Shown here: one piece after another, positions 27,691-52,933 of the stretch
How the letters are laid out: each line of letters opens with the position of its first letter
How positions within the stretch are numbered: position 1 is the first letter of the stretch
DNA from: an uncultured Clostridia bacterium
GTDB lineage: Bacteria > Bacillota > Clostridia > Christensenellales > UBA1242
Assembly: GCA_944332185.1 (NCBI GenBank)
Contig: CALVJJ010000001.1
Location: forward strand, 66,422 to 129,785
Length of the DNA stretch: 63,364 bases
Reading direction: 5' to 3'
Notes under the pieces: generated by a model
The model's database searches: none
The model's input: only the letters and a program-made list of their open reading frames with translations
Told to the model about the DNA's origin: nothing
Program-made: the position numbers and the translations under genes

Positions 27691-27769
27691 AATGACACAC
27701 CTCCTCCATTGTACTTCCTTTTTTATTGTAACATTTTCAAAAATGAGAGTAAAGTAAAATGACATAATA

Positions 27770-27776
27770 TGTCGAA
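27770..27776 (+). promoter_or_regulatory. Spo0A box (perfect 7-mer)
   Basis: TGTCGAA between a TATACT -10 (27791-27796, minus strand) and the 27690 start. Confidence 0.4.
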
Positions 27777-28000
27777 GCATTTTTATACTAAGTATAAAAA
27801 AATAAGATAAAAAAGATCGTAAAATTCAAAAATTATATCAAATATTATAGTAAAAATAATGAGATATATAGCCATTTTTACGCATTTTGACAAATAAAAA
27901 TAAAATCATTTTGCTAGATGTATCCATTTTTTAAAAATAAGTAAAATATACACTAATATCTTGCATTACTACTTACAACCACCCACACATTCCAAAGCAT

Positions 28001-28033
28001 AAAAAAACACTAACAAAATTGTTAGTGTTTTTT
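28001..28033 (-). terminator. Intrinsic terminator after sipW
   Basis: AAAAAACACTAACAA/TTGTTAGTGTTTTTT. Confidence 0.8.
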
Positions 28034-28035
28034 GT

Positions 28036-31500: not shown

Positions 31501-34500
31501 CAGTTCCATCGCCCAATGCTCTAACCTTAAAGGCATACCAGCCAGCGCCAAATTGATGTTCAGCAAAATCTACATCTAGATCTTCATACGTGATGATTTT
31601 ACTATCATAAATTCGAACAATATCTGCTTCTTGTTGTCCAATCACATCATCTTTTGACGTGATCTTATAGACGTGTACTTCGTATTGAAGCGCATTACTA
31701 ACAGCACCTGTACCCCACATCAATTCCCCATCTTTTACAAATGGTATAGCTTCCGTAAGGATTTGTGTTTTACTACTTGTCCCTACCCCACTACGAAGAA
31801 TAATGGTTTCATCTGGATCAACTGCTGTACTATCTTCTGTTCCTAGTACTCTAACACGAATGTAAAAATCTTTTCCTTGGTTAATTGGCGAAGTCGCATT
31901 TAATAATTCACGCACGTTTACTTCTCCATATTGTCCAGAAAGGTTCTTTTGTGGAACAATATATTCTTGATAAGTGATTGCCATATTCATATCATAAGAA
32001 CCATATTCCACTACATAAGTTGTATCTAAGGTTGTAACTTCTTCTTCACCTTGTTGTATGAAAGGTACTTTTTTGAAAATGATGGTTTCATTGTGGATAT
32101 AAGAAGAAATATATGTATCTCCTTCTCCCGTAGCAATAGATTGTGGAGCAATGGATCTATATACTGTCATCAAACTACTTGGGTAGTTCGCATTGACAAA
32201 TAAATCATATTGTGCTTCTGTATCTCCAGTATTACCCAAGCTACGAAGTTTGATTTGATAATACCCTGATGCTCTCATGATGGAAGTCTGGCTGTTATAG
32301 ATCATATCATCATAGGATAAAATCAATTTTTGATTCTCATCATCGCTGACGATAGTAGATACTACTAGTTTTTGATAAGCAAAAATTCCCACACTAGATC
32401 CATTCATACCTAAATTGGCTGCACCCAATTCAAAATACACTAATTGTGCGAGCGAATTAAAATAAGTTGTTTCTTGTGGTGTCATTTGTCCACCATGATA
32501 TTTTTTCACAAGGTTTGCTAATTCCACCCCTGCTTGATAATCAAAAGGTTGGATTTCACCTTCCATATTTTGATATTGCATCATAGAGTTAATGGTAGCA
32601 AAAGGCAAATCCCATGTCAAAATACCATTGATCACTCGTACATTTTGGAGTGGCGACAATTTTGTAACTGTAATCGTAGCTGGAATATCATTAGATAGAA
32701 CAGTTTTTCCATCACCTAATGGGTAAAGAGCTATAAAATACTTTCCACCTTGTCCTAATTCTTCTAATTCATAAGTCGTTTCATACATATTGTCTATGAC
32801 TTTTAGGGCATCTTTTTGCGTATAAGAAGTATCAATTCCTTCTTCATAATCATACATTTTGATCATGAACTTTGTGGCATTTCCTAAATCCCATGTTAAG
32901 ATCCCGTTACTAACTTGCAAACCAGTGATTTGGCCTAAAGTTGTATACGAAATTGGAGTAGATATAGCACTGGTCCAATATCCTATTGCGCCATCTGTAA
33001 GACTTACTTGATCACTCCCAACTGCCAAAACTACATATTGATGGGTTGTCCCTTCAATGTCAGTATTGACCATATAATATTGATTTTCTTCTGTTTGTGC
33101 AATCAAGGTAAGGGTAGGATCTTCATTACCTTCTTGACTCACTACTTCATAAATCATATACGATGTAGCACCATTCACAGCATTCCAAGTTAGCGTTGCT
33201 GTATTGGTTTGATCATTGAGTACCACTGCCAAGTTTTGTGGAGCTTGCATTCCTTGAATGACTGCATCTACTGTAGTTTCACTGGTAATGATATTCCCTG
33301 TTTCCTCATCATAACAAGCAATAGCAATATGATTTTGTTGTTCTGCAACAAACTGATTACCAGAGTAATATAACACGCCATCTTCTTCGTAAAATTCATA
33401 TCCTACTCTTTGTACAGTTTCAGCATCTTTGGCTTCTTCAAGTAGAATAGGTGCCCCGTTAAGATATAGAATATATTTTGTTGTAGGTGTTGCGTTGCTT
33501 GGGGCCTTCCATTGTAGCACCCCTTGTATTACACCAGAAATCACTGATGCTTTCTTTCCTACGATCAAGTTGGTTGCTGTACTTAATTTTGTCACAGCTA
33601 TCGTTTCTTTTTGTGTACTACTAATAGTACTACTACCATCACCAATCACTGTAATGGTTACTTGGTAATTGCCCACATATTTTTGTTGGTCAGTATCTTT
33701 AAAAGCAAAAGATTTTTGTAATTTATTATCTAATGTAGTACGAGTTTCTCCTTGCACTAACTCCAATTCAAATCGAACAGGTTGTTGTCTATCTACATAA
33801 TCATATACCAAAATTCCATCTTCTACTCTTACATTGCTGACGCCTGATAATTGATATGTACTTGTTGCTGTAGGCGCACTACTTACATATCGTACACTAT
33901 CCCCGATAGCCGTAAGAGAAAAATCGAATTCTCCTGCATTTGGTAATACTGGTAATGCGGTAGATAGTGTCAAAGCATCTAGATCTTGATGATATTCCAT
34001 GGTATTACTTGCATCAATAGCATAACCTGTTGCATGTTCTACTGTTTCCCACAAGAATTGATTATTTTGAATTCTAAACTGTGTAGGGCTTGGTAGTTTT
34101 TCTACTTCAAAGGCAGTTTTGTTTTTATTAGATGTCATATAATCATCATGTGTTACTTCTACAATCAGTTGGTAAGTTTTTCCTGCCACTAGCATAGATC
34201 CAATATTGGTACTACTATCTTTAATACCTGCTTGTATCGTTTCATACATCACACCTGTGTCACTTTTCACAACATGATAAATATTGTAAGATACTCCTTC
34301 AATTTGGCTATCCACAATTTGTAAAACGCCATTTTGTAAAGTAAGACTTCCCACAGCCAATTTGTCAAATTCCAATGCAATAGAATCTTCACTGCTGATA
34401 ATATTCACATCATCACCAATCGCTGTGACAGTGGCTGTATATTTTCCTGCATCAAGATCAGCATAATAGGATAATCCAGAAACTGTTTCTAATTTCCCAG

Positions 34501-37228
34501 TATTTAATTTGACTTGATACCCAGTAGCTGTAATACCATAACTAGTCAAATCTCCAGTAGACCAAGTTAATTTTCCTTGTGCCATAGCAAGTTGTGGAGT
34601 GTTTAATTTGTAAAACTCTTTTGCTTGTGTTTGTACTGATGTCAAATATCCTATTCCAGATGTAACACTGTTGCCTATTGCATACACGGTGGCCAAATAT
34701 GCACCAGATTCTGCTACTTGAATCGTATAAGTGTTGGCAGATACTTGTTGGGTGTATTTGACTTCATGATTTTGAGAGATAGTCACTTGATATGCTGTAG
34801 CACCTGTGACAGTATCCCAAGATAATGACACGACATTATCTTTTTTTGTCATAGACACAGCATTCATGCCTAAAAGTGTAATTTTCATTGCTGGACTATA
34901 TGCGCTACTTAATTTCCCATTTTGTTTGACTCTGACAGCAACTTCATAAGGTGTTTGCATTGTCAAATACGATCTAATATCCACTGTGATATCTTCTGTT
35001 GTAATGACTGTAGCCAAGGCTTGATCTTGATAGATGGCTAGTTCATAAGTAGCTTCTTCTAGTATTCCACTTTGCTCATTTTCTACAATGACAAGTTCGC
35101 CATTTACCGTTTTGACACCTTCTGGAGTATACAACATAGCAAAACTATATTCTGTCCCTTTACTCATGACAGTATTATAATTATTACCCCAAGCATAGAT
35201 GGTAATAGTATTTTGCCCTGCTACTGCATGACGTGGTGCATATTGTGTTTGATTTCCAATGTAATAATACTGCGCATTTTGTGATTCTTTGATGATATAC
35301 CCAGTGGACTTTGCCACACTAGAGAACGAAATGGTCTGTGTATCATCATGGAATTCTATATCTTCAAAATCTGTATTTGGTAATACTTCGAATGTAAAAC
35401 CGTAAGTCGTTGTATCTTGAAAATCTACTGTACTAGAGATGACAGCATTTTCCCCATTGGCTTGTACCCATACATGATAGATCGCTGGATCCATCACAAA
35501 ACCAAATGTGTAATTTGTATCAGTTGTTGTAGCCACTCTAGTTGCTTGTTCACTGCCTTTTTGCAGGTAAATGGTATAACTCGTAGCATTTTGAACAGCT
35601 TCCCATTCTACGGTTGGATTCACCCAATCCGTGATGATCTCTAGATTATCACTTTCTGGTACTGTTGTTTTTGTGCCTTGGTTGGTTACACAGGTAATAG
35701 TGGCATTATTGAGTTTTTCAATTTCGATTCCATCTATTAGTAATTTGTTACTATTGACTAGATTCAATCCGGTATTTTCTTTTGCAATCACTCGAATGGC
35801 AATGTGATATAGACCTGCATTTTCAATAATCAGTCCTACTTGACTACTGTTGCCTGTGACGATACTTGAGTAGGAATCAATTTCATTTTCATAATAGATT
35901 TGGTATTCTTCTACTCCAATCACACTTTCAAATGTCAAAAGATTGCCCGTTAGTTTTACACTAGATGGATTGATAGATCCGATCTTGGTAAAGGAAAGTA
36001 CTTCACTGATAGTTCCATCAATGGTATTATCTTCCCCATGTGCCATTACTTGTAAATGATACTCCCCTGCATTCAATTCTTCAGGGATTTTGTATTCATT
36101 CACATAGACATCTTCTTGTTTTACTTCTAGTCCATCTGTGGTTGTGATTTTGACCGTATAATAGGTCGCATATTCTACGGTATCCCAACGAATGATTGAC
36201 TGATCTTGTCCATTGTGAATGGTAAAATTCGCAACTTGAGAAAGTGGATAAATTGTCAAAGAATGGGACCACTCACTTTCCAAATACACATATTTTGTAT
36301 CTGTTGATGGGTGAATAGCTTTGACTCGAATAGAGTACTCATCATAAGAAGGAAATTCTTCTAATAAAGCATACGTTATTTCTTCTTCTCCATTACTAGG
36401 AATAGTTACTATCGTCGTAGTTGGTTGTCCATGATCTAGGTAGGTAATTTCTACTTGATAAGCATTGGCTCTAGCAACTGGATCAAAATAAATGACACCA
36501 TCTTCTTGACGAATATCTGTCACTGTTTCCAATGCTGTAAAGTATAACTCTTGTGAATAACTACCATCTGCTGTTGTGGTACCATTACCATTTGCTTTGA
36601 CTTTTACTGTATATTCATGTCCTATTGTAAAATCTACCACTTGGTATCGTACGATATTTTGATAAGTTGGATCATAATAGACAGTAATAGGATCCAAAGT
36701 TTCTGCATTGTCAGTCATCACCAATGTGTAATTCTTGGCATCATCGATCTTATCCCATATCACATATCCATCTTCATAGACTAGATGTGTTGGAGTAGGT
36801 AAAATGGTAGGATCTACTACTTGGAAAGTAAAGGTATCTGATCGAACAGGTAGACTTTTTGTCTCAATATGTACAGTCACTTCTCCACGATTGACAGCAT
36901 GAATCAACACACTACCCATGACTCCGTTTTGTGTTGTTTCCACAATTTCTGCTGCATCAGCAATTCCTGTAAAAAATACATTCACATCATTTTGTGTGGA
37001 AGTACCTGGTCGAATTTGGTAATCTATCTTAATGGTAGAACCGACATAGACAAAATTTTCACCATCAACAACATAATCTCCAATGGAATCTTTGTTGTTG
37101 ATCGTCAGTGAAATAGGCGTGGTCACAATGGTTGGTGTATCATTCTTACTAGAACAACTGCACCCCCCTAAAATAGCTACACAAAAGATAGCAAAATACA
37201 TTAAAATTAAAGATGTTTTCCTTTTCAT
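28535..37228 (-). CDS. Giant (2897 aa) surface lipoprotein with many FN3-like repeats and a C-terminal GLUG-like beta-solenoid
   Basis: Lipobox LGGC; more than 20 repeats of type L..P......G.L.W..V..A..Y.V...Y...V.A.G....S..S; GSGSQKDPYIISTAEQF followed by GGLV..N / AGIV..N repeats. Confidence 0.85.
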   Translation of the reverse strand: MKRKTSLILMYFAIFCVAILGGCSCSSKNDTPTIVTTPISLTINNKDSIGDYVVDGENFVYVGSTIKIDYQIRPGTSTQNDVNVFFTGIADAAEIVETTQNGVMGSVLIHAVNRGEVTVHIETKSLPVRSDTFTFQVVDPTILPTPTHLVYEDGYVIWDKIDDAKNYTLVMTDNAETLDPITVYYDPTYQNIVRYQVVDFTIGHEYTVKVKANGNGTTTADGSYSQELYFTALETVTDIRQEDGVIYFDPVARANAYQVEITYLDHGQPTTTIVTIPSNGEEEITYALLEEFPSYDEYSIRVKAIHPSTDTKYVYLESEWSHSLTIYPLSQVANFTIHNGQDQSIIRWDTVEYATYYTVKITTTDGLEVKQEDVYVNEYKIPEELNAGEYHLQVMAHGEDNTIDGTISEVLSFTKIGSINPSSVKLTGNLLTFESVIGVEEYQIYYENEIDSYSSIVTGNSSQVGLIIENAGLYHIAIRVIAKENTGLNLVNSNKLLIDGIEIEKLNNATITCVTNQGTKTTVPESDNLEIITDWVNPTVEWEAVQNATSYTIYLQKGSEQATRVATTTDTNYTFGFVMDPAIYHVWVQANGENAVISSTVDFQDTTTYGFTFEVLPNTDFEDIEFHDDTQTISFSSVAKSTGYIIKESQNAQYYYIGNQTQYAPRHAVAGQNTITIYAWGNNYNTVMSKGTEYSFAMLYTPEGVKTVNGELVIVENEQSGILEEATYELAIYQDQALATVITTEDITVDIRSYLTMQTPYEVAVRVKQNGKLSSAYSPAMKITLLGMNAVSMTKKDNVVSLSWDTVTGATAYQVTISQNHEVKYTQQVSANTYTIQVAESGAYLATVYAIGNSVTSGIGYLTSVQTQAKEFYKLNTPQLAMAQGKLTWSTGDLTSYGITATGYQVKLNTGKLETVSGLSYYADLDAGKYTATVTAIGDDVNIISSEDSIALEFDKLAVGSLTLQNGVLQIVDSQIEGVSYNIYHVVKSDTGVMYETIQAGIKDSSTNIGSMLVAGKTYQLIVEVTHDDYMTSNKNKTAFEVEKLPSPTQFRIQNNQFLWETVEHATGYAIDASNTMEYHQDLDALTLSTALPVLPNAGEFDFSLTAIGDSVRYVSSAPTATSTYQLSGVSNVRVEDGILVYDYVDRQQPVRFELELVQGETRTTLDNKLQKSFAFKDTDQQKYVGNYQVTITVIGDGSSTISSTQKETIAVTKLSTATNLIVGKKASVISGVIQGVLQWKAPSNATPTTKYILYLNGAPILLEEAKDAETVQRVGYEFYEEDGVLYYSGNQFVAEQQNHIAIACYDEETGNIITSETTVDAVIQGMQAPQNLAVVLNDQTNTATLTWNAVNGATSYMIYEVVSQEGNEDPTLTLIAQTEENQYYMVNTDIEGTTHQYVVLAVGSDQVSLTDGAIGYWTSAISTPISYTTLGQITGLQVSNGILTWDLGNATKFMIKMYDYEEGIDTSYTQKDALKVIDNMYETTYELEELGQGGKYFIALYPLGDGKTVLSNDIPATITVTKLSPLQNVRVINGILTWDLPFATINSMMQYQNMEGEIQPFDYQAGVELANLVKKYHGGQMTPQETTYFNSLAQLVYFELGAANLGMNGSSVGIFAYQKLVVSTIVSDDENQKLILSYDDMIYNSQTSIMRASGYYQIKLRSLGNTGDTEAQYDLFVNANYPSSLMTVYRSIAPQSIATGEGDTYISSYIHNETIIFKKVPFIQQGEEEVTTLDTTYVVEYGSYDMNMAITYQEYIVPQKNLSGQYGEVNVRELLNATSPINQGKDFYIRVRVLGTEDSTAVDPDETIILRSGVGTSSKTQILTEAIPFVKDGELMWGTGAVSNALQYEVHVYKITSKDDVIGQQEADIVRIYDSKIITYEDLDVDFAEHQFGAGWYAFKVRALGDGTAFLNGEWSPEVKVYRLPEILQGGNTIDLDYGDFVWTPNWVDAVVTSPTAAKAMVYQSAEQNGGYTTDKEYSIVSSQLGEQSRLAIGDQYLQYVDGLLQYYKIAIANMVEDDEQPTEDNFAYLRSSYTTMDTGYSRLSAPTGLRIENGKITWDGTGNQFEVMVNGTILEEKVFGKTFSLDANYKAGSYEIKLRNLADSITQQLSSVFSNSITVTKLNAPDLRLEQGKIVWNTSSVGFEEVGEIAVEILQGNLAIFKQSYTGTTTNLDLNTITLGNGEYLQPNVVYTITVQFKSVLGNTTYVDGEIARMNFTILQHVTLSTDDADTSAGNFIKWNSIDHALGYKVYVYVPNTDGVYEYDSEYIVYVDQVDQQKDFEYDPEQNVWKFSIANIQQSVYRIYVEAMGSTISADQNTQDHLYASSLLIDEDSYMDIELPQTPVVDVQSLQQNGKIVWTNKTTTAYPVLEYSYMRNGETISSGPIVLAKSATTYYLPTIAQQYTVKIYAMNDLGVMSLPFDFTANYSIYASGSGSQKDPYIISTAEQFLAIRERNTISYESVDGTVALHYYFQLSDNITLSNSYTKMEKLDGVILGNGKTLTIPNTYTESLFGTITKDGSVTNLVITKNNNISKSTYRLIADTNNGTIDGLSLTISGTYTVNNLAFVAGTNTGTISNISVVANALTVMPASTSNELHVFMITEWNQGTIVNITLSGSLTTYTGTSGEIIVAGVAYTNDKTIKHVVNTMNMTNNTNESQSISYASKLAGIVYENKQLVEQCGVEGVLSGSNIAGIIYQNYAQLNTSYFTGSIRAVQVTKDSNNSVSPIYVGGLVVNNLNRYLGADMDPRISNSYVLINSDNLVLDSNVSSLTENFAYVGGLVTYNNSAVAVSSASIVNCYVVIHDITSTNNRYQFGQIAYSSNAKQNGYSIFNNVYYYSNCQNQTLIKTYESSEITMSNNTLSLTGVTVYTDLSQMTGLTLEFVASSDHVKLKWQA

Positions 37229-37705: not shown

Positions 37706-37737
37706 AAAAAATCAAGCAAAATAATGCTTGATTTTTT
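37706..37737 (-). terminator. Intrinsic terminator after 1996-aa gene
   Basis: AAAAATCAAGCA/TGCTTGATTTTT. Confidence 0.8.
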
Positions 37738-40700
37738 ATAGATCTGCACCCCATGTTGCATATAGTGTCATATCACTTGTTACAACTATTTCCGTAAGCA
37801 CGGTATAGTCTTTGTTTTGTATGTTAGATATCAACACATTGCTAGCACCGGTCGTATTCCAAGTCACAACACGCATATCATAACTATCTGTAATCCATAC
37901 ACATTGATAGGTATAGGTACAATAACTTGTATATAAAGATGGATCAATCGTATCCCCTTCTAACACATAAATATTTTCTACTGTGTTTGGTGCTTTCACA
38001 CAAGTAATTTTTCCTTGGAATGCACTATTTTTATCTATCCATGCTGAAGGTTTTACCCAACCTAAATTAAAGGATACCACATACCAATTTTTACGTTCTT
38101 CTTCTACAACAGAAACAATATTTCTATCTGTATTGCTCATCACAAAATTGGTAAGGTACTGACCATTTTCTTGGTACCCTAAGAAATGGTAAATCATGCG
38201 ATATGCTAATTTTCCACCCTCTTGATAGTCAATACTATACTCTACCTGTTCTGGTAATTGAAAGGTTTCTCCTTGGTACAAATCAAGTGTTTTTGTATAT
38301 TGTGTATGCTGTTGATCTACCTTTTCATAATATGTATAAGTTACTCTATAACGATTGCGAATATGTAACACAAGATCTTGATCAGGCATAGTATCCTGAT
38401 ACGTTGTGGCTTGTGTGTATTCTGCATCTAGATACCATTTGGTAAATTTATCAATTTTGATCCTATCTGGCAACGAGATCACATCTCCTACTTTCCATAA
38501 CCCTTGATACACAATTTCATTTTGGTCTAGAATGGTCAAAGATCTTTCTTTGACAATACTTAAAACTTCCCATTGTGCATAGATCGTAAGATCGTGGCTT
38601 GGCATCATACCTGTAAATTCTTCACGATATTCTGGATCTACATACCACCCTAAGAAATGGTATGTAATGGTCGTACCATCTGTATTCTCTACGATCGTAT
38701 TCCATGATGGAAGTGATACAGTATCTTGTTCATAACACTGCATAGCTGGTAATGATTCCCCATGATCTGTAACAAATTGCAAGGTATAAGAAGTTTGAGT
38801 ATAGGTGGTAATGAATCTAGCATACAAATTTTGACTTACAGAAGGTATTAAGGTGATTTTATCTCCATTTTGATCTGCCCAACAATCAAATGTTTGAAAT
38901 AGTTTTTGATTGCCTTGAATAAGAATACGATCTTGTAAATAATTTTCTTTGATAGCAGTTCCGACCAATCCATAGTACTGATCTATGAGTTGGTCATCTA
39001 CATAGTAGAATATAGTACGATATGCCTCTTTCTCTACCCATTTTGCATATAGAGTTAGGTCCCCTCTGGTGATCACCGTTTTTGTATATTTTTCACCTTC
39101 AAAAGTTGGTGTTGTATACCAGCCATCAAAAGTATAGATAGTCTTATCTGTATCCGTTTCAACCACTTTATTTGGTAAAGTTGGCAAAGTATAGACAGTA
39201 TCAATAGCTCCTGTCACATTTTCAACTTCTTGCCCACCGTTTTCTTCAAAACTTACCGTATAGACAGTGGCACTAGCAAGTGTCCAATTCCCATTACTTG
39301 CGTGCCAATATTCGTCTACTTTATATGGATAACTATTGATATAATTTTCCATTTCTGCAAAATCAATTTCTTGCCCAATAGTATTTAGCGTAAGATCAGT
39401 ACTTGTAATATCTACCTTAAATGCACTAGAGATTGGCATATGTACTTCCAATGCCCCTTGCACAATGTACTCTTTTTGATCTACTGGACTCGTGGTAAGA
39501 CGAATGGTCATGGTATCTAAGTCACTATTGTTGGCTAACTCTGCAAGATTTAAGATCAATTCATAGGTGTTATCAGTCTTACCAAAACCTAGTAAAATAT
39601 TACTCATATCTAATGGAGTCGTTCGGTTCATAGCTTTATCGACTGCTACTTGAATCTCGTCCATGATAATGTCTTGGAATCCACAACCATAACTTAATAG
39701 CATCATAGGATCAGCCAAAAATTCTTCCAAAGTCATTTTTAATTTTTTCTCATATTTTCTATCAGAACTTGCAAATCTAGGAATATTTTCACTTCGATAA
39801 AAATACACATAGCCATCTGCAAAATATACTTTCAAGATTCTATCTTTTCCACAATTCACACCACTAATGGTATCACCAAAAACATAAGGAACATCATTAT
39901 CAATTGGTGCAATGACTGGAATTGGTCCAACAGTTAGCATGATTTCTGGTTTTTGATCACGCAGACGAATTGCAAGATCAACTGGTACACTCATAGAGAT
40001 GGCATCACTTAAACTCAAAACTTCCATGGTAATATCTAAAGTAGCTGTGATATGGAAATATTGCAAACTTGATGTATCTATAAAAGCTTTGACTAATGGT
40101 GCACAATCAGACAAATCCATATATTGTTCTTTATCTGGTAATTGTTGCACTCCTTGAAATTCATTGACAAAGATAGACAAATCGAATTTTTCAGTTGGTG
40201 TCACCCCTGAATAAAAGTCTTTAATTATAATACCACTTAATGCATGGTCATTGGTAATGATATCAATGGTGACATCTTGACTATTTTCCACCCCACTTAA
40301 TTTTGAACCATATAATGTAATGGTCAAAATGGAATCATGAAAACTTACCTTTTTAATATAGGTTAGTAGCATCAGTGGTTGTGTTGGATCAAACGATGGA
40401 ATCAGTTGTTGCAAATTCTCTAGATCTAGTTGCATATCTTGTGCGACATCTTGTAAGAAATCTAATTTTGAAGTATCAATACCCAAAACACTAGCGAGTA
40501 TATACGCTAATTCCTTGAGACAATCTTGTGACATTTTGACTTTTAATTTGTTGTAATTGACATACAGCATTTTGTCTTCATAAGCAAGATTAAATTCCAT
40601 ATCTTGCAATCCAGTCAGTTTTGCCTCGCCGAACAATGCAAAAGTGTTTTGCCAATCCATTTCTAATTGACAGTTGGCAACATATTGAATACTATTTTCT

Positions 40701-43700
40701 TCATAAACTGTTGCATTAGCAGACACACTGACTTGTTTTGTTTCTATGATACCCATGATACTGTCAATAAGTTGTGTGAGCATCGTATAATGTTGGAATT
40801 GTGTAGGATCAACTTCAATCATCACTGGCGACCATACTACCCCTGCTTTGATAGAAAGTTGTGGAGCAGATAGTTGTACTTGCCAACTTTCTTGTCTACT
40901 AAGTGTAAGCATAAACTGATCCAAGAAAGATAAGGAGATAGTATTATTCTTCGTTGTGATACTATCTAGACTATCTAAAGATAGATCACTGGTATAGACA
41001 CTAGGCAACTTAAAATCTGTACCAAAACGAGCATTGATCCACTCCAACAGCATTGGAATTTCGTCCAATCCCATTGCAATACGAAGCCCTGCTACTGTCA
41101 TATATACTGTCGCATGATCCAAGATTGCTTCTATATCTAATCCATAAAATTGTGTGACTACTTTTGCTTTTAAGTTTTCAATATCACTTAGACTTTTCAT
41201 TTGACGAGCATCTAGTTCAAAATCTACTTGCACTTCTAGATCTTGATACTGAATATCTAATGTGCCTTTTGCTTGTTTTTCTTGATAGAATTGTGCAAAA
41301 TCTTGTACGAATGGCAACACATCTTCTACCTGTACAGTAGATGGTAATGGAGTAATACTTGGTTGTTTTCCCCAATCTATCTGTATGGTAACATCAGCCA
41401 CTCCGTGATAGCTGATACTTTCCAATCCTTGTGCAGAATAGACAAGACGGATTTCCTGTCCCATGGCACTACCAGATAAACTATACTGATATTTTTCTTG
41501 TTGTAATTGTAGACTATCTATTGTAAGAGTTTGCAAAAATTGTACAATTTGATCAGTAGATATAGATAATTGTGGCAATACTATTTCCCCATTAGGTAGA
41601 TATGTTTCTAGTACTTTTTGAATATCTTCCACTGGGAGATGATAGTCATTAGATAGAATATCGAATAATTGTGTAAGAGTAGTGATCTTGGTGGATACGA
41701 CTATGTTGTTGATAGATAACGTAAGGAGTCCATTCTGCAACACGACACCTAGTTGATATCCTTGCATGGTAGTATGAATTTCTACATTTAGACCATTACG
41801 AAGATCTAAGGCAATATCGAATAGGTATGTATGGTCTTGTAGACATAGTTCTACTTGCCCTACTACTGTTTTTTGATCTATCACAGTCATTATATGTTGT
41901 GCTAGAATATCTATACTTTCCAAAGATAGATAAGCTTCTTTTTCTACCGTTGGTATTGTCATTGGTTGAAGATTTACTACAGCATGGATCTTGTCTAGAT
42001 AAGATACAGCAATGGTGGACAAAGATTGACTGTCTCTTGCGATATTAAGTTGTAGTCCTTGATACGATAATTGGAATTGTGTATCATTCCATACTATGAT
42101 ATGTAAACTATCTAAAATAGACAAAATATCCAATGTAGCAAAGTCAATTTTGTCAATAGATACCGTAGGTAATTCTATCTTCATTCCATATTTTGCTAGA
42201 TAAGATTGCACTTCTTTCCATGTAGTTTTGATATACACTCCATCTAGATGTAGATAGACAACTTCTTCTTGATACCATATCTCTATTGGTTGCCCAAATA
42301 GTGTAGTAGAAATATATAGTTGGATTCCTGCATTCCAATCTACCATCATATTCCCTGATACAGTAATATCTTGATAAGTTGCAGAGAATTGTCCTGCAAT
42401 TTGTTTTTCTTCCATGATATCCATGATAGTATCAAGATAAGAAACTACTGTTGTAATGGAAGTAAACGATCCTTGTGGTTGTTGAATAGGTGTATTCCAT
42501 GTCTCAAAGCCAATATGAATATGATGAGATTGCCATTGCCAGTCAATATCGTTTAATTTTCCATCTGCATCGCTTTGCAAAAGAATTGTTCCATAGTGTG
42601 CCAACGTGATCTTAATTCCACCATCTATTTGTTCAATGTTTTGAATGATCTCTTGAATAGCAAGAGTATCTAGCGAGATGGTAGGTAGGACAAGTTGTGG
42701 AAAATATGTTTGCATTATTTTTTGGATTTCTTCTATGGTAGCTTCTATATGTATGGATCCAATACTTACATAGATATGATCCTCTACCACGATGATTTCC
42801 ACAGTTTTACCATTGATTGTCCCCCGGAATTGCAAAGCAAACCCATTATCTGTTGTGATGGCTATAGATCCATCAATCATATATCCAAACAGCTCTCCTT
42901 CAAAGCAGAATTGGAAAGCATCATATCCTTGATATCCCAACAACATAGATATTAGATGATACGCATTACTAATATCCAAATAGGTATCTTGCTTGACAGC
43001 TGGTATGCTAAAATCTTCTGCATTGCATACCATATCGACATCTAACGAGAAGGTAATACCTGCAATAGTCGTTGGTTCTATGATGACTTTTTCCATGGTA
43101 TAAGTTTCATCTAGTAAGATGGTTGCATGGATCAAATCTTCTACCAAAAATTCTAATTGGTATCCTCCTTCTCTTTCACTGGTGTGTACATATTGCAATA
43201 AGGAAGTCAAACTGCTGATATCTAATTCCTCTAAATTCCCTAATCCTAATGCATCTAAAAAAGACAAATCTAAATTGTTGATATAAGGTTTTAAGATAGA
43301 CAAAAGTGGTTGCAAACTATCTAGTAAATGAGAAGTATTGATCTTGATATTTTGACCAAGTAAAGATAGATAAGCTGTCGATTCTTCATAATGTAAATAG
43401 ATTGGCAGTTGTTGATCTTGATAGACAACAAAAAGATTCGCATCTACTTTTAGCGTAGGTGTCACTTGTAATAACACATTCCCTGTTAAATCTATGGTTG
43501 TGCCCTGATATTCGCCACGAATGTGAATAGTAAGATTCATATTCTTGGTTGCAAGAGTTTTAGACACCATTCCATCTAGAATAGGATCGCTCGTATCTGT
43601 TTCTCCTCCTGCCAATAATCCATAACTATCCGAATCACCAGAGACTTTATATACCATAACCATCGTTCCTGCCGAAGCTAAGAATACGATGAGAAAAACC

Positions 43701-43726
43701 ATAAGGTATTGTAATAATCTTTTCAT
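37736..43726 (-). CDS. Large (1996 aa) N-anchored surface protein with seven ~180-aa repeats and C-terminal InlB B-repeat (Listeria-Bacteroides) domains
   Basis: N-terminal TM; repeated I.I.Y....VYL...G..IK motif; YTVSFEENGG..YTFDGWY..LTLYAKW type repeats from ~39262 to the end. Confidence 0.85.
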   Translation of the reverse strand: MKRLLQYLMVFLIVFLASAGTMVMVYKVSGDSDSYGLLAGGETDTSDPILDGMVSKTLATKNMNLTIHIRGEYQGTTIDLTGNVLLQVTPTLKVDANLFVVYQDQQLPIYLHYEESTAYLSLLGQNIKINTSHLLDSLQPLLSILKPYINNLDLSFLDALGLGNLEELDISSLTSLLQYVHTSEREGGYQLEFLVEDLIHATILLDETYTMEKVIIEPTTIAGITFSLDVDMVCNAEDFSIPAVKQDTYLDISNAYHLISMLLGYQGYDAFQFCFEGELFGYMIDGSIAITTDNGFALQFRGTINGKTVEIIVVEDHIYVSIGSIHIEATIEEIQKIMQTYFPQLVLPTISLDTLAIQEIIQNIEQIDGGIKITLAHYGTILLQSDADGKLNDIDWQWQSHHIHIGFETWNTPIQQPQGSFTSITTVVSYLDTIMDIMEEKQIAGQFSATYQDITVSGNMMVDWNAGIQLYISTTLFGQPIEIWYQEEVVYLHLDGVYIKTTWKEVQSYLAKYGMKIELPTVSIDKIDFATLDILSILDSLHIIVWNDTQFQLSYQGLQLNIARDSQSLSTIAVSYLDKIHAVVNLQPMTIPTVEKEAYLSLESIDILAQHIMTVIDQKTVVGQVELCLQDHTYLFDIALDLRNGLNVEIHTTMQGYQLGVVLQNGLLTLSINNIVVSTKITTLTQLFDILSNDYHLPVEDIQKVLETYLPNGEIVLPQLSISTDQIVQFLQTLTIDSLQLQQEKYQYSLSGSAMGQEIRLVYSAQGLESISYHGVADVTIQIDWGKQPSITPLPSTVQVEDVLPFVQDFAQFYQEKQAKGTLDIQYQDLEVQVDFELDARQMKSLSDIENLKAKVVTQFYGLDIEAILDHATVYMTVAGLRIAMGLDEIPMLLEWINARFGTDFKLPSVYTSDLSLDSLDSITTKNNTISLSFLDQFMLTLSRQESWQVQLSAPQLSIKAGVVWSPVMIEVDPTQFQHYTMLTQLIDSIMGIIETKQVSVSANATVYEENSIQYVANCQLEMDWQNTFALFGEAKLTGLQDMEFNLAYEDKMLYVNYNKLKVKMSQDCLKELAYILASVLGIDTSKLDFLQDVAQDMQLDLENLQQLIPSFDPTQPLMLLTYIKKVSFHDSILTITLYGSKLSGVENSQDVTIDIITNDHALSGIIIKDFYSGVTPTEKFDLSIFVNEFQGVQQLPDKEQYMDLSDCAPLVKAFIDTSSLQYFHITATLDITMEVLSLSDAISMSVPVDLAIRLRDQKPEIMLTVGPIPVIAPIDNDVPYVFGDTISGVNCGKDRILKVYFADGYVYFYRSENIPRFASSDRKYEKKLKMTLEEFLADPMMLLSYGCGFQDIIMDEIQVAVDKAMNRTTPLDMSNILLGFGKTDNTYELILNLAELANNSDLDTMTIRLTTSPVDQKEYIVQGALEVHMPISSAFKVDITSTDLTLNTIGQEIDFAEMENYINSYPYKVDEYWHASNGNWTLASATVYTVSFEENGGQEVENVTGAIDTVYTLPTLPNKVVETDTDKTIYTFDGWYTTPTFEGEKYTKTVITRGDLTLYAKWVEKEAYRTIFYYVDDQLIDQYYGLVGTAIKENYLQDRILIQGNQKLFQTFDCWADQNGDKITLIPSVSQNLYARFITTYTQTSYTLQFVTDHGESLPAMQCYEQDTVSLPSWNTIVENTDGTTITYHFLGWYVDPEYREEFTGMMPSHDLTIYAQWEVLSIVKERSLTILDQNEIVYQGLWKVGDVISLPDRIKIDKFTKWYLDAEYTQATTYQDTMPDQDLVLHIRNRYRVTYTYYEKVDQQHTQYTKTLDLYQGETFQLPEQVEYSIDYQEGGKLAYRMIYHFLGYQENGQYLTNFVMSNTDRNIVSVVEEERKNWYVVSFNLGWVKPSAWIDKNSAFQGKITCVKAPNTVENIYVLEGDTIDPSLYTSYCTYTYQCVWITDSYDMRVVTWNTTGASNVLISNIQNKDYTVLTEIVVTSDMTLYATWGADL

Positions 43727-43736
43727 GTTCTCCCTT

Positions 43737-44711
43737 CTATAACAAAGTTACATTGTCATACTCAAACTGCATCAGCAAACTGCCACCACAAGTCACAGTC
43801 ATACCGTATGTTACTTTGTATTCTTCTTTAATTGTAATGGACAAAAATCTTCCATTTTGATCCACTGAAAATTGCACGGTCACATAATTAAATTTTGGGG
43901 AATCTAATCCACTCATTTTGCTCATTTGTTTGACATAATTGATAACGGAAGCTTGTGGGTGTAAGGAAATTTCACATTGATATACCCCTTCCACAAGATT
44001 CTTTGTCCCTTTACCTATGACTGTTCTAGTTCCCACAACATAAGGAATGACACCCGTTGGGCTAGTTCCCCATTGTTGTTTGTATTCTTCTGCACTTACC
44101 TTTTCTTCTGCGCCATTCCATGTTGCAGCCCCATCATTTTCTGGTTTCCCTGACTGCACAATGACATCACTATTTACAGTATAATGCATTTGATAGGCTA
44201 CATTTTTAATGCCTTTACTAATTTGGTTGTTGTAATACTGATCACCTTGTTTTTGAAATGTAGACCAAACCAACTGATCTGTCAGCGGATTGGTGACCTT
44301 CCCACTCGCATTCATTTGGTATTGATACTCTTGTGACAGTTTGTATTCTCCCACTACAAATATTTCTGCTGGAGTCAAAGAAGCAATATTCTTTTTTAGC
44401 AAACTTGGAATATTATCTCCTGCCCGTAACGATGTTTCATCATACATAGAATAATCCACTTTTGATAAAAATGCTTCTACAATATAATTCCCCACAAATA
44501 TTCCACTAAAGCAGCCCATCACAGCAAAGACACAGATGTTCAGCCAAAATCTTTTTTTTGTGATTTCTTTTTTTCTTTTTTTCTTCTTTTTTGTTTTACT
44601 TTCTTTTTCTTGAATAGATTGCAGTTGTTGTTTTTTATCATCTTCGATCAGCAAGGTCTGTGTCTCGACCGTTGTCGAAGTATCTTTTATATTTTTTTTC
44701 TTTTGTTTCAT
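43737..44711 (-). CDS. Membrane-anchored protein with beta-rich (LolA/LppX-like?) ectodomain
   Basis: Lys-rich N-terminus, one TM, alternating beta strands (VTVQFSVDQNGRFLSITIKEEY...FEYDNVTL); fold call is inference. Confidence 0.7.
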   Translation of the reverse strand: MKQKKKNIKDTSTTVETQTLLIEDDKKQQLQSIQEKESKTKKKKKRKKEITKKRFWLNICVFAVMGCFSGIFVGNYIVEAFLSKVDYSMYDETSLRAGDNIPSLLKKNIASLTPAEIFVVGEYKLSQEYQYQMNASGKVTNPLTDQLVWSTFQKQGDQYYNNQISKGIKNVAYQMHYTVNSDVIVQSGKPENDGAATWNGAEEKVSAEEYKQQWGTSPTGVIPYVVGTRTVIGKGTKNLVEGVYQCEISLHPQASVINYVKQMSKMSGLDSPKFNYVTVQFSVDQNGRFLSITIKEEYKVTYGMTVTCGGSLLMQFEYDNVTLL

Positions 44712-45474: not shown

Positions 45475-45503
45475 AGTATACCAAATTTTACAATACTTGT
45501 CAA
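45475..45503 (-). promoter_or_regulatory. Near-consensus SigA promoter for the RAYT-like operon
   Basis: TTGACA-17 nt-TATACT with extended -10 TG. Confidence 0.8.
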
Positions 45504-49247: not shown

Positions 49248-50600
49248 TTATTCTTCTTCCTCTTCTGTTAATACTGGTGCATCTCCATCTGCAAAAGTAC
49301 CAAACATTTCAAACACAGGACTAGATTTTTGCATATCCCAACGATTCAAATATTGATTTTCTTCACTACTTTCATTGGTATACGTACGGACAAAATAGAT
49401 ATTTCTTCCATCAATATCATATAACGTTGCATCATCTGGCATAGATACTTCACTATCTCCACAAATGGTTTTGTTGTTTAGTGTCAAAACATCAACACAA
49501 GACAATACTCCTTCTTTTACATAGTAGATAGTTGCACCTAACACATCAACAACGGTAGCGCCTGATAAGACACTAATTGTCTTTACATAACCATTGTTTG
49601 CAGCATACATTTCAAAGACACCATTGTTATTGAATACAACAGCATTCATATTCATATTGTCTAGAATATAAGTATCCGTTGCGTTTTGTAAAGAGAACAT
49701 AGATTCATCACTAATATTACTTACTTGATAACTTACCAATTTTGTCGTACCAAGTGTACTACTTGTGACATTGACATACACTTTGTCACTGACAATATCC
49801 ACCACACTATACGTATTGGTATCATTTTTAATCGTTTGTTCGTTCGTTGTACCCAAAGCACACCTAGCAAGAACATTCCCACTTTGACCTTGTTCATCTT
49901 CTTTTAAACTACGTGTATACCAAACATATCTTTCAGCATCTGTGGTTTGGTAATTACTAGCACTATAGGTATCATGATGTGCCATAGCAAAACTGGTAAC
50001 ACCAGTAGCAATGGTATTGGTTGTTGCTTTTTTACCATTAGCCACAACACTAACCAAACTATCTCCATTGTATACCACAAAATATACTGTTTGATCTACT
50101 TTGACCATTCCCCAATCGCCTTCTTCCATAGAGCCATTGGAAGTATAGAGTCTTTTTTCATCTGTTCCGTCTAATTTGACACGGTAAAAATCAATATAGT
50201 TTTTAAGGGTATTCCCTTCTTTGTCTTTTTCCATATTTGGTGTTGCATAATAGATATATCCATCAAATAGATAAATGCCACCCATTGCATACCCTACAAG
50301 TCTACTACTTACTTTTTCTGCATTAGTTAGATAGTTATTCTCATCAAGACTTGCATAATATTGATTATCTAATTTGGCACGATACAAAGCACCTTTTGTC
50401 ATATCTTTGCTTGCATTCTCATAGGTGTCATAGCCGTTGGCAAAATATACAAATTGTCCTTGTTGTACAACTAGTCCTCCATTGCCAATGACAGTATCAT
50501 TTCCATTAGGGTTTTCTTTAAATCCTTTTTGTCCACACCCTGTTAGTACAAGCGAACAAGCCATGAACACAAACACAAATAGTAACGCAATTCTTTTCAT
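49248..50600 (-). CDS. Lipoprotein, probable beta-propeller (DUF5050-like)
   Basis: Lipobox LTGC; NGGLVVQQGQFVYFANG, DGYIYYA, FYRVKLDGT repeats. Confidence 0.75.
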   Translation of the reverse strand: MKRIALLFVFVFMACSLVLTGCGQKGFKENPNGNDTVIGNGGLVVQQGQFVYFANGYDTYENASKDMTKGALYRAKLDNQYYASLDENNYLTNAEKVSSRLVGYAMGGIYLFDGYIYYATPNMEKDKEGNTLKNYIDFYRVKLDGTDEKRLYTSNGSMEEGDWGMVKVDQTVYFVVYNGDSLVSVVANGKKATTNTIATGVTSFAMAHHDTYSASNYQTTDAERYVWYTRSLKEDEQGQSGNVLARCALGTTNEQTIKNDTNTYSVVDIVSDKVYVNVTSSTLGTTKLVSYQVSNISDESMFSLQNATDTYILDNMNMNAVVFNNNGVFEMYAANNGYVKTISVLSGATVVDVLGATIYYVKEGVLSCVDVLTLNNKTICGDSEVSMPDDATLYDIDGRNIYFVRTYTNESSEENQYLNRWDMQKSSPVFEMFGTFADGDAPVLTEEEEE

Positions 50601-50777: not shown

Positions 50778-51806
50778 TTAAGCTACATGATCCTCTATCA
50801 TACAATTATCACCCGTCAGTGCATCTTGATACATGACCCAATACCCTTGATCTTCCTCTCCATTACTTGTCAAAATAAATTGACTATATGCTCGAAATTC
50901 TTCTGGTGGCAACATATCTTTTTCTCCTTGCACCCCATAAGCAATATAACGTAACGTTTGATCTTGATATAATAGTCCTAGTACATATTGGCCACTGCCA
51001 TCTACCTGATCGACTAACACCCATTGAGAATGAGGCACAAGACTTTCAAGATTTCTTTCATGCTCATTGTGTGCAAAAAGATCTTCAATTTGATCTTTGA
51101 TCTGGTCATAAAAAGTATCTTGATCATGATCTAATTTTGCCATCTCTTGTGCAAACATATCCAATTTTCCCTCTTGACTCATAGCCTGATCAATGACTTG
51201 ATCCAATTCTTTTTCTTCTAATGGCTGAAAAAATGCTGTAGGATCTACTGTATCTTGAATATTGGTAACATCAGTCACGATCCTATCAACATCTTCTGGT
51301 GAATCTTGTCTCCCTTGAGATATGTGGTTATCAACGACACTTGCCTGAGAAAGGATAGAACTATCTTTACGGTGATCTTTTTTCTCTTGATCTACCGAAT
51401 TTTTGATCTCAACTACCCTATCTTCTACAGGTTGTTCCTTTTCTTTTTGTTGCATAGATTGTAGCAAATTCATTCTTGTATCATCTAATTTTTCCGTACT
51501 TCCCCAAACAATCGGTTTTTTATCTTCTTTCGTCACTAAAACACACGTGATTTTTTTTTGCAAATCCAAGTTGGCAACTGTGCGAATCACAGCCATACTT
51601 CCTCCTTGAAAGCATACCGGTACAATACACATCTGTTTGTCTTGACAAGCTATTCCCAAAAGATACTCTGCCTGTTTATCTTCAAAATAGTAAGATTTGA
51701 GTGTCCCTACCCATTCTTTTCCTTTCTTTTCCAACGTAAGTGTCAGCATAGACTTATGATCAAATTGATCGTTGGATAAAATCATTGTTTTTTTTGTCAT
51801 TCCCAT
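50778..51806 (-). CDS. Conserved Clostridial hypothetical protein (possibly sporulation-related)
   Basis: N-terminal beta domain, acidic linker, C-terminal YVLGLLY...YIAYGV.G...PP.E....GYWVMYQDA.TG. Confidence 0.7.
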   Translation of the reverse strand: MGMTKKTMILSNDQFDHKSMLTLTLEKKGKEWVGTLKSYYFEDKQAEYLLGIACQDKQMCIVPVCFQGGSMAVIRTVANLDLQKKITCVLVTKEDKKPIVWGSTEKLDDTRMNLLQSMQQKEKEQPVEDRVVEIKNSVDQEKKDHRKDSSILSQASVVDNHISQGRQDSPEDVDRIVTDVTNIQDTVDPTAFFQPLEEKELDQVIDQAMSQEGKLDMFAQEMAKLDHDQDTFYDQIKDQIEDLFAHNEHERNLESLVPHSQWVLVDQVDGSGQYVLGLLYQDQTLRYIAYGVQGEKDMLPPEEFRAYSQFILTSNGEEDQGYWVMYQDALTGDNCMIEDHVA

Positions 51807-51911: not shown

Positions 51912-52772
51912 TTATTTTGTTTTATCGGATTTTACTTTATAGAATAGACAATGTTGACAAAGATCGTGTATTCTTTTCCCTTGCCAAAAAGATTGTTTGT
52001 ATGTTTGAGCAGTATCACTTTCTAAAATATTTTCTAAACTATCTTGTTTTAGATTGCCTAACACCATTTTCCCTTCGCTATCCAAACAACATGGCACAAC
52101 ACTTCCATCGACTAGAACAGCAATCTGTTTTGACAAAGCTGGACAATATCCTTGTATATGGGACACTTGTGATTGAATTGGCCACACAAAAGTGGTCCCA
52201 AACATAATATAAGCATTGTGATCCAACTTGATACTATTTTGATATTTGTTGTCCTTTATGATAGTGGGATAGATGGCTTCCTTACCGTATTGTTGTAGTA
52301 AAAATTGGACCTGCTCTTTTGCAAGCATAGAATGATCCCAATTCCAGAATCGATATTCCACAATAATAGAGGAAGGCAACCTATGGACAGCTGTTACGAT
52401 ATTTTCTAAATAGGTTTTCCAGTTGGTTTCTCCATTTTCTTCTAAAGATTGTACAGAGATGGTAATCTTTCTTAAAGCATTGGTTTTTGACAATATGTCT
52501 ATAGTATTAGACAATTTTGTACCGTTAGTTGTTAAGTTTACTTGCAAATGTATTTTTTCACACACTGCTAGGATTTGATCTAAATGTGGGTGCAGTAAAG
52601 GTTCTCCCATGACATGTAAATAAATATGATCACAGACTTTCTTGACTTGTTTTGCAATATTTTCAAAAAAATCCACAGCCATCACTTCTTTCTTTCGATG
52701 ATTTTTTGGACAAAATGCACACTGTAAGTTACACACATTCGTAATCTCAATATAGACTCGTTGGAATTTCAT
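51912..52772 (-). CDS. Radical SAM protein with SPASM/twitch domain
   Basis: CNLQCAFC, MGEPLLHP, LTTNG, C...DGSVVPCC...LGN...C..C; start ATG 52772 in TAATG overlap. Confidence 0.92.
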   Translation of the reverse strand: MKFQRVYIEITNVCNLQCAFCPKNHRKKEVMAVDFFENIAKQVKKVCDHIYLHVMGEPLLHPHLDQILAVCEKIHLQVNLTTNGTKLSNTIDILSKTNALRKITISVQSLEENGETNWKTYLENIVTAVHRLPSSIIVEYRFWNWDHSMLAKEQVQFLLQQYGKEAIYPTIIKDNKYQNSIKLDHNAYIMFGTTFVWPIQSQVSHIQGYCPALSKQIAVLVDGSVVPCCLDSEGKMVLGNLKQDSLENILESDTAQTYKQSFWQGKRIHDLCQHCLFYKVKSDKTK

Positions 52773-52933
52773 TACCAATCTACAACATCATGCGTATGAC
52801 TTTTGATATCATCATAATACGCAAAATACTTTTGTTTTTCTTTTTGTGTGTTCTTAATTGCTTGTTCTTTCTTTATTTGTGCATACGTTTTCTTTTTCTT
52901 ATTAGGATTGGCTAATTTAGTTTGTTGTTCCAT
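52772..52933 (-). CDS. Small 53-aa protein missed by ORF track
   Basis: MEQQTKLANPNKKKKTYAQIKKEQAIKNTQKEKQKYFAYYDDIKSHTHDVVDW; GAAGGA RBS within rlmD end; stop overlaps radical SAM start; exactly fills the gap. Confidence 0.75.
   Translation of the reverse strand: MEQQTKLANPNKKKKTYAQIKKEQAIKNTQKEKQKYFAYYDDIKSHTHDVVDW

Follow-up and report, generated by a model that had tools for sequence, protein, structure and literature searches.

Why would a bacterium string copies of a domain otherwise known from lipid carriers into one giant, membrane-anchored protein? The question is raised by P0001, a protein encoded in a stretch of 63,364 nucleotides (nt) from an uncultured Clostridia bacterium of the Christensenellales (lineage UBA1242; contig CALVJJ010000001.1, positions 66,422 to 129,785 of the forward strand; hereafter the window). 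A previous reading of these letters without database searches (the sequence-only reading) had proposed that the protein carries a tandem array of LolA/LppX-like domains and might form a lipid-transfer conduit across the cell wall. Our analysis arrives at the same predicted fold. As to function, we favour, with confidence and doubt in about equal measure, a length-variable surface fibre with a LolA-fold shaft, in which P0001 would act as a fibrillar adhesin or spacer.

Repeat architecture and predicted fold of P0001

P0001 contains one strong hydrophobic 19-mer (Kyte-Doolittle 2.34), located at its N-terminus, and no LPXTG motif. This predicted membrane helix is followed by six tandem units, a divergent seventh unit that we call the head, and a C-terminal tail (Table 1). 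The sequence-only reading had described seven units of ~175-200 amino acids (aa) at ~39300-43560, with long amphipathic strands, a helix and an I..P....Y linker, on a membrane anchor and with B-repeat domains behind them. These elements were recovered in our analysis: six canonical units and one divergent unit occupy positions 39287-43600 behind the single N-terminal helix, hydrophobic and polar residues alternate strictly along the strands, the helix and linker are seen in the unit alignment and in the DSSP assignments, and the tail is recognized as Listeria-Bacteroides repeats by both Pfam (Flg_new, E 6.3e-21) and NCBIfam (TIGR02543, E 2.4e-7), with at least five copies across aa 1485-1995.

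The repeats are detectable within P0001 itself. Self-comparison of the whole protein by BLASTP gave the identity match only, and hence a chunk-wise version was used, which returned eight off-diagonal matches within aa 68-1091 (E <= 0.003, best 2e-8) and a ninth within the C-terminal tail. The cores quoted in the sequence-only reading lie at aa 109, 481, and 1045, and equivalents are present at aa 309, 659, 865, and 1297. A hidden Markov model (HMM) built solely from the six window units recovered six units from each of the close homologs P0005 and P0006, and five from P0007 (E values down to 4e-31). After four iterations this unit HMM yielded 210 unit matches in 28 family proteins, i.e., the window protein and those of 27 related loci. 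In the head of P0001 it matches the first ~55 positions only; the entire head is matched in loci L010 and L025. Pairwise identity among the units of the window protein is 22-28%, and the mean column identity across 107 units is 14%. As the search for tandem repeats in the DNA of the P0001 gene found only short chance arrays, and the units are this divergent, the array is ancient.

The fold of the units was predicted with AlphaFold2 from two different alignments. Units 2 and 3 (aa 235-586) were modeled with alignment A3, whose 57 rows of non-overlapping two-unit segments replaced the staggered alignment A2 (117 overlapping segments, 1390 columns). The resulting model has a mean predicted local distance difference test score (pLDDT) of 90.2, with 254 of the 352 residues at 90 or above, and a predicted template modeling score (pTM) of 0.80. 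In each unit, DSSP assigns a helix at the N-terminus followed by six strands; a second helix leads through a linker of lower confidence to a short helix, after which come five strands. Unit 6 and the head (aa 968-1480) were modeled together with alignment A4 (26 rows; pLDDT 82.6, pTM 0.70), and the same order of elements is found there twice. This layout corresponds to that of LolA, which consists of 11 strands and three helices.

Structural searches with Foldseek against the PDB place both models among the same families. With the two-unit model, 57 entries passed E <= 1e-3, of which the following are credible, each at probability 1.00: RseB at the top (E 3.9e-5), LppX (2byo; E 8.8e-5; template modeling (TM) score 0.55, normalized by target), LprG, and LolA of several species (TM-score at most 0.50, normalized by target). 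Matches to the sliding clamp and similar proteins reached a probability of only 0.2-0.35. The model of unit 6 and the head retrieved, likewise at probability 1.00, LprG (3mh8, E 1.5e-5), LolA, RseB, LppX, LprF, and LolB, and besides these the two-barrel protein BFA1. With both models the TM-scores are moderate, 0.40-0.55 normalized by target, and the root-mean-square deviation (rmsd) is high. A search of viral structures with unit 6 and the head gave nothing credible, the clamp-like matches having a probability of at most 0.38; one uncharacterized giant-virus protein matched at probability 1.00, with a TM-score of 0.31 normalized by target. On these models, the predicted fold of the P0001 units is that of LolA, LppX, and LprG, supported by two independent predictions from different alignments that agree in topology and in the PDB families retrieved. 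The assignment that the sequence-only reading had made by pattern was thus upheld by the structural check, with LolA-type matches at probability 1.00.

The sequence searches are silent on this relationship. No family of the LolA clan (LolA, LolB, LppX_LprAFG, MucB_RseB, DUF6612, and others) was detected by Pfam on the whole of P0001 at E <= 0.1, or on 57 two-unit segments at E <= 10. NCBIfam likewise left the units undetected and, as with Pfam, only the Listeria-Bacteroides repeats were recognized in P0001. Searches of the PDB with the units, by sequence and by the profiles A3 and A6, were empty. The single-unit profile A6 retrieved no stand-alone relatives of 91-377 aa, in a word-limited search that is not proof of absence. 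In the ESM Atlas the units fall among hypothetical Bacillota clusters and one LppX_LprAFG cluster, the latter at a sub-threshold score of 0.83 that serves as a lead only.

Two properties of the models are relevant for what follows. The strict alternation along the strands gives each unit one greasy face under amphipathic helices, a pattern that fits a cavity and a packed core alike. In addition, the pTM of the two-domain model suggests that neighboring units adopt a defined relative orientation.

Family, head, and gene pairing

Proteins of this family are numerous. A HMMER search of 1.84 billion cluster representatives retrieved 152 proteins at E <= 1e-3; the count falls to 121 at a threshold of 1e-10 and to 78 at 1e-30. 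Most measure 1500-2700 aa, and the longest has 4174 aa. A word-indexed search found nine relatives, one of them 98% identical to P0001. The 27 related loci come from a scan of species-representative genomes, and all belong to uncultured Clostridia that are Christensenellales-like where classified. Their titles name Christensenella sp., Catabacter sp., Candidatus Onthoplasma (Christensenellaceae in the NCBI taxonomy), Candidatus Caccopulliclostridium, Eubacteriales, and one Oscillospiraceae bin.

The number of units varies from 1 to 15 across the relatives. The 115 database proteins that appear complete, judged by the presence of a head and of an intact hydrophobic N-terminal segment, have 3-15 units (mode 5-8). 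Among the genomic loci, a single unit precedes the head in the ~940-aa forms of L004 and L009, and L007 has 14 units. In L007 (2864-12418, +) a three-unit block (units 5-7 and 8-10) is repeated at 93-100% amino-acid identity, reflecting either a recent duplication or an assembly artifact. An older duplication of a three-unit block, at 38-60% identity, is found in L019 (3960-12821, +).

The head was detected in 137 of 156 database proteins, once in each and always after the last unit, with no unit beyond it; of the 19 proteins without a detectable head, many are short sequences that probably represent fragments. The head is better conserved than any other part of the family, with a mean top-residue frequency of 0.54 compared to 0.40 in unit 6 (alignment A4). 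Nine residues of the head are invariant in this alignment (P1270, D1278, P1280, R1296, D1304, Y1308, R1311, Y1325, and K1327). They are located on strands 4-6 and in or beside a conserved loop inserted between strands 3 and 4 (PIDNDVPYVFGDT). The signature, read from the alignment, is polar and aromatic, rich in Tyr, Arg, and Asp, and not greasy.

The tail is more variable. Of the 19 diverse relatives that were scanned, 15 contain Flg_new at E <= 1e-3, and in 12 of these the score exceeds the Pfam cut-off; P0130, one of the four without it, proved to be an unrelated false positive. In the 115 complete proteins the tail measures less than 60 aa in 18 cases, 60-350 aa in 21, 350-650 aa in 73, and at least 650 aa in three.

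The giant gene has a conserved neighbor. A homolog of P0002 is encoded directly upstream of it in 23 of the 28 loci (window counted), and of the five loci without one, L023 ends at the contig edge and L017 has only 618 nt of upstream sequence. P0002 is predicted to consist of a lysine-rich cytoplasmic N-terminus, a single membrane helix (aa 55-77; 44481-44549), and an extracytoplasmic domain of ~245 aa. No match was found for it in Pfam (window protein and 22 members), NCBIfam (window protein), or the PDB (window protein and profile A5), and its 26 database relatives are all unnamed. The sequence-only reading had seen in P0002 one membrane-anchored, beta-rich ectodomain similar to the units of P0001. 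The helix and the ectodomain are there, whereas the likeness did not hold, as a profile comparison of the P0002 family with the units by hhalign gave a probability of 0.09%, i.e., no profile similarity. A weak, sub-threshold lead comes from the ESM Atlas, where DUF6612/"putative LppX_LprAFG" appears at rank 21 with a score of 0.88. Complex prediction for aa 1-414 of P0001 with aa 55-324 of P0002 was uninformative either way (interaction prediction score from aligned errors, ipSAE, 0.00 and 0.00).

A T-rich low-complexity tract on the plus strand (44550-44611) encodes the poly-lysine N-terminus of P0002; this homopolymer-like tract could be prone to slippage.

A third gene, P0160, precedes P0002. 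Its product lacks a hydrophobic segment and is probably a small cytoplasmic protein, with a weak C-terminal helix-turn-helix signal (HTH_58, HTH_23, and HTH_28 at E 0.02-0.16, under the Pfam cut-offs); the family occurs upstream in 7 of the 28 loci. P0160, P0002, and P0001 seem to be transcribed as a single unit. The start of P0001 lies 10 nt beyond the stop of P0002, and the promoter-like site ahead of the three genes is the top site of a 9-kb scan, in a region where the number of such sites is not above that in shuffled sequences.

Table 1. Features of the P0001 locus and selected other genes, in positions of the window.
Feature	Positions	Strand	Basis and remarks
Promoter-like site, TTGACA-17 nt-TATACT with upstream TG	45475..45503	-	11/12 matches; consensus match only
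P0160	44708..45484	-	Open reading frame of 258 aa; likely start ATG at 45442; stop overlaps P0002 start by 4 nt
P0002, partner	43737..44711	-	324 aa; directly upstream of P0001
P0001, giant protein	37736..43726	-	1996 aa plus stop; ATG preceded at 5 nt by ribosome-binding site AGGGAG
N-terminal signal-anchor or membrane helix (aa 7-27)	43646..43708	-	Hydrophobicity; kept in homologs
Unit 1 (aa 43-234), membrane-proximal	43025..43600	-	Unit-profile match begins only at position ~20-30
Unit 2 (aa 235-412), predicted LolA-fold module	42491..43024	-	Unit HMM; AlphaFold2 residues 1-178, pLDDT mostly >90; Foldseek
Unit 3 (aa 413-586), predicted LolA-fold module	41969..42490	-	Unit HMM; AlphaFold2; Foldseek
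Unit 4 (aa 587-790)	41357..41968	-	Assigned via homology to units 2 and 3
Unit 5 (aa 791-968)	40823..41356	-	Unit HMM
Unit 6 (aa 969-1196), predicted LolA-fold module	40139..40822	-	Unit HMM; AlphaFold2 model 2 residues 1-229; longer low-confidence helical insert
Head (aa 1197-1480), predicted seventh, divergent LolA-fold unit	39287..40138	-	AlphaFold2, Foldseek, alignment A4
C-terminal tail (aa 1481-1996)	37739..39286	-	At least five Listeria-Bacteroides repeats (InlB B-repeat type, Flg_new)
Terminator-like hairpin, 13-bp stem and T run	37706..37737	-	Directly after P0001 stop; pattern match only
GerXC / GerXB-permease / GerXA-type germination receptor operon	6861-10842	-	All scores below equivalog cut-offs
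Open reading frames with plausible lipobox	10845-12866, 21402-23171, 23252-25486, 28538-37228, 49251-50600		Regular-expression match

A comparison of the 28 loci, covering at most 10 kb to the left and right of the giant gene, shows recurrence beside it of two families only, P0002 and P0160. No transporter (ATP-binding cassette (ABC), MmpL, or major facilitator superfamily), ATPase, sortase, or lipid-metabolism gene is conserved next to it in these loci; a transporter may be encoded elsewhere in the genome.

The window has a G+C content of ~35%, and it encodes rpoB and GerA/GerB/GerC-type germination proteins, which mark the host as a spore-forming member of the Bacillota. Based on taxonomy and the spore genes, the host is one of the spore-forming Clostridia and presumably monoderm.

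The sequence-only reading had also placed the array next to a lipoprotein-rich island. Five open reading frames (ORFs) of at least 100 aa in the window have a plausible N-terminal lipobox, and to this extent the description is apt; a sixth match to the pattern, at 14207-14521 (+), is a spurious shadow ORF. A connection of these surroundings with the giant gene, in contrast, was not kept in any of the 27 related loci (0/27). Specifically, a link to the lipoprotein P0003, encoded downstream, and to the adjoining SipW-like peptidase cluster was rejected, with no homolog in any of those loci.

Several genes of the window are of interest in their own right. P0003 (28535-37228, -) is a 2897-aa lipoprotein with the lipobox ILGGC near aa 20 and no Pfam or NCBIfam match at E <= 1e-3. 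By eye it contains many beta-rich repeats of ~90 aa and a C-terminal region resembling a parallel beta-helix. Behind a small signal peptidase of the S26/SipW-like type (28036-28533, -; Pfam E 1.7e-5) come three ORFs of 208-260 aa without an assigned function (cluster 25474-28533, -), and the group may be a SipW-dependent secreted-fibre cassette. Two of these ORFs (26214-26840 and 25474-26253, -) have paralogs among the ORFs at 16017-16721 and 16949-17626 (-). The lipobox ORF at 10842-12866 weakly resembles the Mycoplasma-type MAG6410 family of transglutaminase-related lipoproteins (E 2.4e-23, far below the cut-off). A gene for a radical S-adenosylmethionine (SAM)/SPASM enzyme (51912-52778, -) adjoins the ORFs at 50778-51806 and 49248-50600 (-), the latter encoding a lipoprotein, and the trio may constitute a peptide-modification cassette.

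Possible roles of the array

The reading that we favour, a surface fibre, would work as follows. P0001 would sit in the cytoplasmic membrane by way of its one N-terminal helix, the N-terminus facing the cytoplasm. The shaft beyond the membrane would be built of six tandem modules, each folded into an open half-barrel of 11 strands plus three helices, and short conserved linkers would fix their relative orientation, which could give the shaft the shape of a rod. The far end would carry the specialized seventh LolA-fold module, the head with its conserved polar and aromatic site, followed by at least five Listeria-Bacteroides repeats. The shaft would hold head and repeats past the wall, exposed at the surface, and evolution would tune its length through gain and loss of units. 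At the membrane end P0002 might act in anchoring, assembly, or signaling.

This reading is favored by the combination of a variable length, a poorly conserved shaft, a polar conserved head, and a tip of adhesin type, as well as by the block duplications that change the length. Moreover, the arrangement follows the grammar of fibrillar adhesins and periscope proteins. Fibrillar adhesins have, by definition, tandem stalk domains, a distal binding part, and a variable number of stalk domains (PMC8286594; PMC8201768). There is also precedent for a LolA-type fold that is not a carrier, in that GerS and SsdC of spore-forming monoderms are LolA-fold proteins that are described as having non-carrier roles (bioRxiv 10.1101/2025.01.13.632879).

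Several points weigh against the surface fibre. A purely structural role for seven modules of a lipid-binder type would be unusual. The units retain, in the models, the full layout of 11 strands and three helices, and their strands keep one strictly hydrophobic face, as in a lipid-binding half-barrel (or any packed core). Most of the characterized Foldseek relatives of the units bind lipid or acyl chains. We know of no binding partner for the Listeria-Bacteroides repeats or for the head, so that the label "adhesin" is given by analogy. The tip is always of one kind (Flg_new), unlike the mixed tips found on generic stalk domains, and 18 of the 115 complete relatives are nearly tail-less after the head, which indicates that the repeats are dispensable. 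Finally, the term "LolA" occurs 0 times in the main text of a survey of fibrillar adhesins (PMC8286594).

The points concerning the modules themselves lead to the alternative that survives best, which we consider a minor but serious possibility: each unit keeps a hydrophobic cavity, and the array binds lipid, either as a relay or conduit that moves acyl lipids or lipoproteins between membrane and exterior, or as a multi-site sponge. As a sponge it would soak up hydrophobic compounds present in the gut, for instance fatty acids or bile acids. In both versions P0002 would be a loading or receiving partner on the membrane side. The proteins to which the fold is matched, LolA, LolB, LppX, LprG, LprF, and RseB, are binders of lipid or acyl chains; a sheet of eleven strands that is hydrophobic on one side, covered by a lid of amphipathic helices, would be suited to such binding, and the defined orientation between units (pTM 0.80) would permit cavities to be aligned. 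A conserved membrane partner exists in P0002, and the weak, sub-threshold leads from the language model (LppX_LprAFG/DUF6612; 0.83 for the units, 0.88 for P0002) point in the same direction.

The length of the array argues otherwise. With 1 to 15 units among the relatives, it does not appear to be tuned to a single fixed distance, and such a range is unsuited to a bridge of fixed span. Neither an ABC transporter, MmpL, or other energy source nor a lipid-metabolism gene is conserved near the gene in the 28 loci, and a monoderm would offer no acceptor membrane. In addition, transfer between known LolA-type proteins is mouth-to-mouth, to which a rigid head-to-tail chain would not be obviously suited, and the best-conserved residues of the family are polar and aromatic residues of the head rather than a greasy lining. 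In its most far-reaching form, which we regard as unlikely, seven modules with lipid-sized cavities, fixed head-to-tail, would constitute the first bridge or relay device for lipids in a monoderm. This extracellular chain, with up to 15 cavities in relatives, would take lipids of the host, the diet, or neighboring cells at its adhesin tip and deliver them to the cell membrane, where P0002 would receive them. Within that scheme traffic could just as well run outward, with lipids or lipoproteins being exported across the wall.

Improbable, in our view, is a scaffold or sensor of the envelope or of sporulation that acts through contacts with proteins or the wall, like SsdC, GerS, and RseB. Such a protein could, for example, span the intermembrane space between mother cell and forespore, or report the state of the envelope via P0002 and the possibly DNA-binding P0160. 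RseB heads the Foldseek list for the two-unit model, germination proteins are encoded in the window, and the operon starts with a small protein that has a weak helix-turn-helix signal. LolA-fold proteins of spore formers are described as playing roles of this type (bioRxiv 10.1101/2025.01.13.632879). However, neither a sigma nor an anti-sigma gene is part of the conserved neighborhood, the P0160 family is restricted to a quarter of the loci (7 of 28), and the Pfam description of the family presents Listeria-Bacteroides repeats as typical of proteins exposed at the cell surface. The size and variable length of P0001 also set it apart from RseB, GerS, and SsdC, which are proteins of one or two domains.

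Very hard to sustain is the view that the predicted fold is a modeling artifact and the units are another beta-rich stalk domain, immunoglobulin (Ig)-like or a beta-sandwich, unrelated to LolA: the failure of every sequence method to tie the units to the LolA clan and the moderate TM-scores with high rmsd would fit it, whereas two models from different alignments converge on one topology and on PDB families at probability 1.00, some seven in ten residues of the two-unit model have a pLDDT of at least 90, strands and helices come in the order expected for LolA, and the competing sliding-clamp-type matches have low probability.

The family is widespread in uncultured gut Clostridia and invisible to current domain libraries. 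The consequences differ with the nature of the modules. If these are structural, P0001 would bring to bacterial surface fibres a stalk module that is new and of unusual size and, together with P0002, a new anchor-partner pair; it would also help in annotating numerous giant genes now labeled "hypothetical" in Christensenellales-like gut bacteria. If they bind lipid, the array would handle lipids outside the cell in a way for which monoderms offer no precedent.

Comparison with known systems

Like LolA and LolB, the carriers of lipoproteins in the periplasm and at the outer membrane of diderm bacteria, the units of P0001 are predicted to have an N-terminal helix, six strands, lid helices, and five strands, arranged as an open half-barrel with one hydrophobic face. 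In contrast to these proteins, with which they share no detectable sequence relation, the units do not occur as one soluble or lipid-anchored domain; seven domains are joined in a single membrane-anchored chain of 1996 aa. No LolCDE-type transporter is encoded near the genes of the P0001 family, and the Clostridia host would have no known outer membrane.

The best structural match for a single domain is provided by the glycolipid-carrying lipoproteins of mycobacteria, LppX, LprG, and LprF (2byo, TM-score 0.55 normalized by target; 3mh8, E 1.5e-5). As predicted for P0001, these are located on the outer face of the cytoplasmic membrane. P0001 differs from them in its anchor, a membrane helix where they have a lipobox, in its tandem array, and in having no match to PF07161. 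Where the mycobacterial proteins have MmpL or an Rv1410-type protein as partner, the partner of P0001 would be a novel single-pass protein.

RseB/MucB, a sensor of envelope stress composed of a large LolA-like domain and a small domain, aligns with the two-unit model over ~300 columns, i.e., more than one domain in a row. The rmsd of this alignment is nevertheless high (18-20 Å), and P0001 lacks an RseA or sigma-E context, is far larger, and varies in length. GerS and SsdC share with P0001 a LolA-superfamily fold in a monoderm spore former that does not serve periplasmic lipoprotein transport (bioRxiv 10.1101/2025.01.13.632879). Unlike P0001, they are single-domain proteins tied to sporulation or germination, without tandem arrays or Listeria-Bacteroides repeats, and no sequence similarity between them and P0001 was found.

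In overall organization, P0001 comes close to the fibrillar adhesins and periscope proteins with stalks of SHIRT, Rib, or G5-E repeats, which likewise have an envelope anchor, a single type of domain repeated in tandem in variable number, and a distal specialized part (PMC8286594; PMC8201768). Its stalk module, however, would be a LolA-fold half-barrel of ~180 aa and not a small Ig-like or beta-sandwich domain, and the polarity is reversed, with an N-terminal membrane helix, a C-terminal tip, and no LPXTG motif. In contrast to periscope proteins, most units of P0001 are ancient and divergent rather than near-identical, and there is a dedicated gene for a membrane partner.

With the bridge-type lipid transporters (the jellyroll chain LptC-LptA-LptD, and the repeating beta-groove proteins AsmA/TamB and the VPS13 type), P0001 shares only the concept of a membrane-anchored chain of beta-modules with a hydrophobic face that would span the envelope. 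LptA, LptC, LptD, TamB, AsmA, and VPS13 are absent among the best ~50 of at least 500 Foldseek matches, indicating a different fold. Bridge-type systems reach from one membrane to a second, and in the case of Lpt an ABC transporter provides the drive; beside P0001 no ABC transporter is conserved, and a second membrane would not be expected.

The LolA fold is familiar from single-domain proteins that carry acyl chains in diderm bacteria, apart from a few one-domain derivatives in spore formers. In the family of P0001 a LolA-type fold, as predicted here, is found in 1-15 tandem copies and makes up the bulk of a giant, membrane-anchored protein that probably lies at the surface. Full-text searches of the literature turned up no publication describing either this family or LolA-fold domains arrayed in tandem. 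What is new, then, is a known fold in a repeated, surface-anchored architecture, paired with a new partner.

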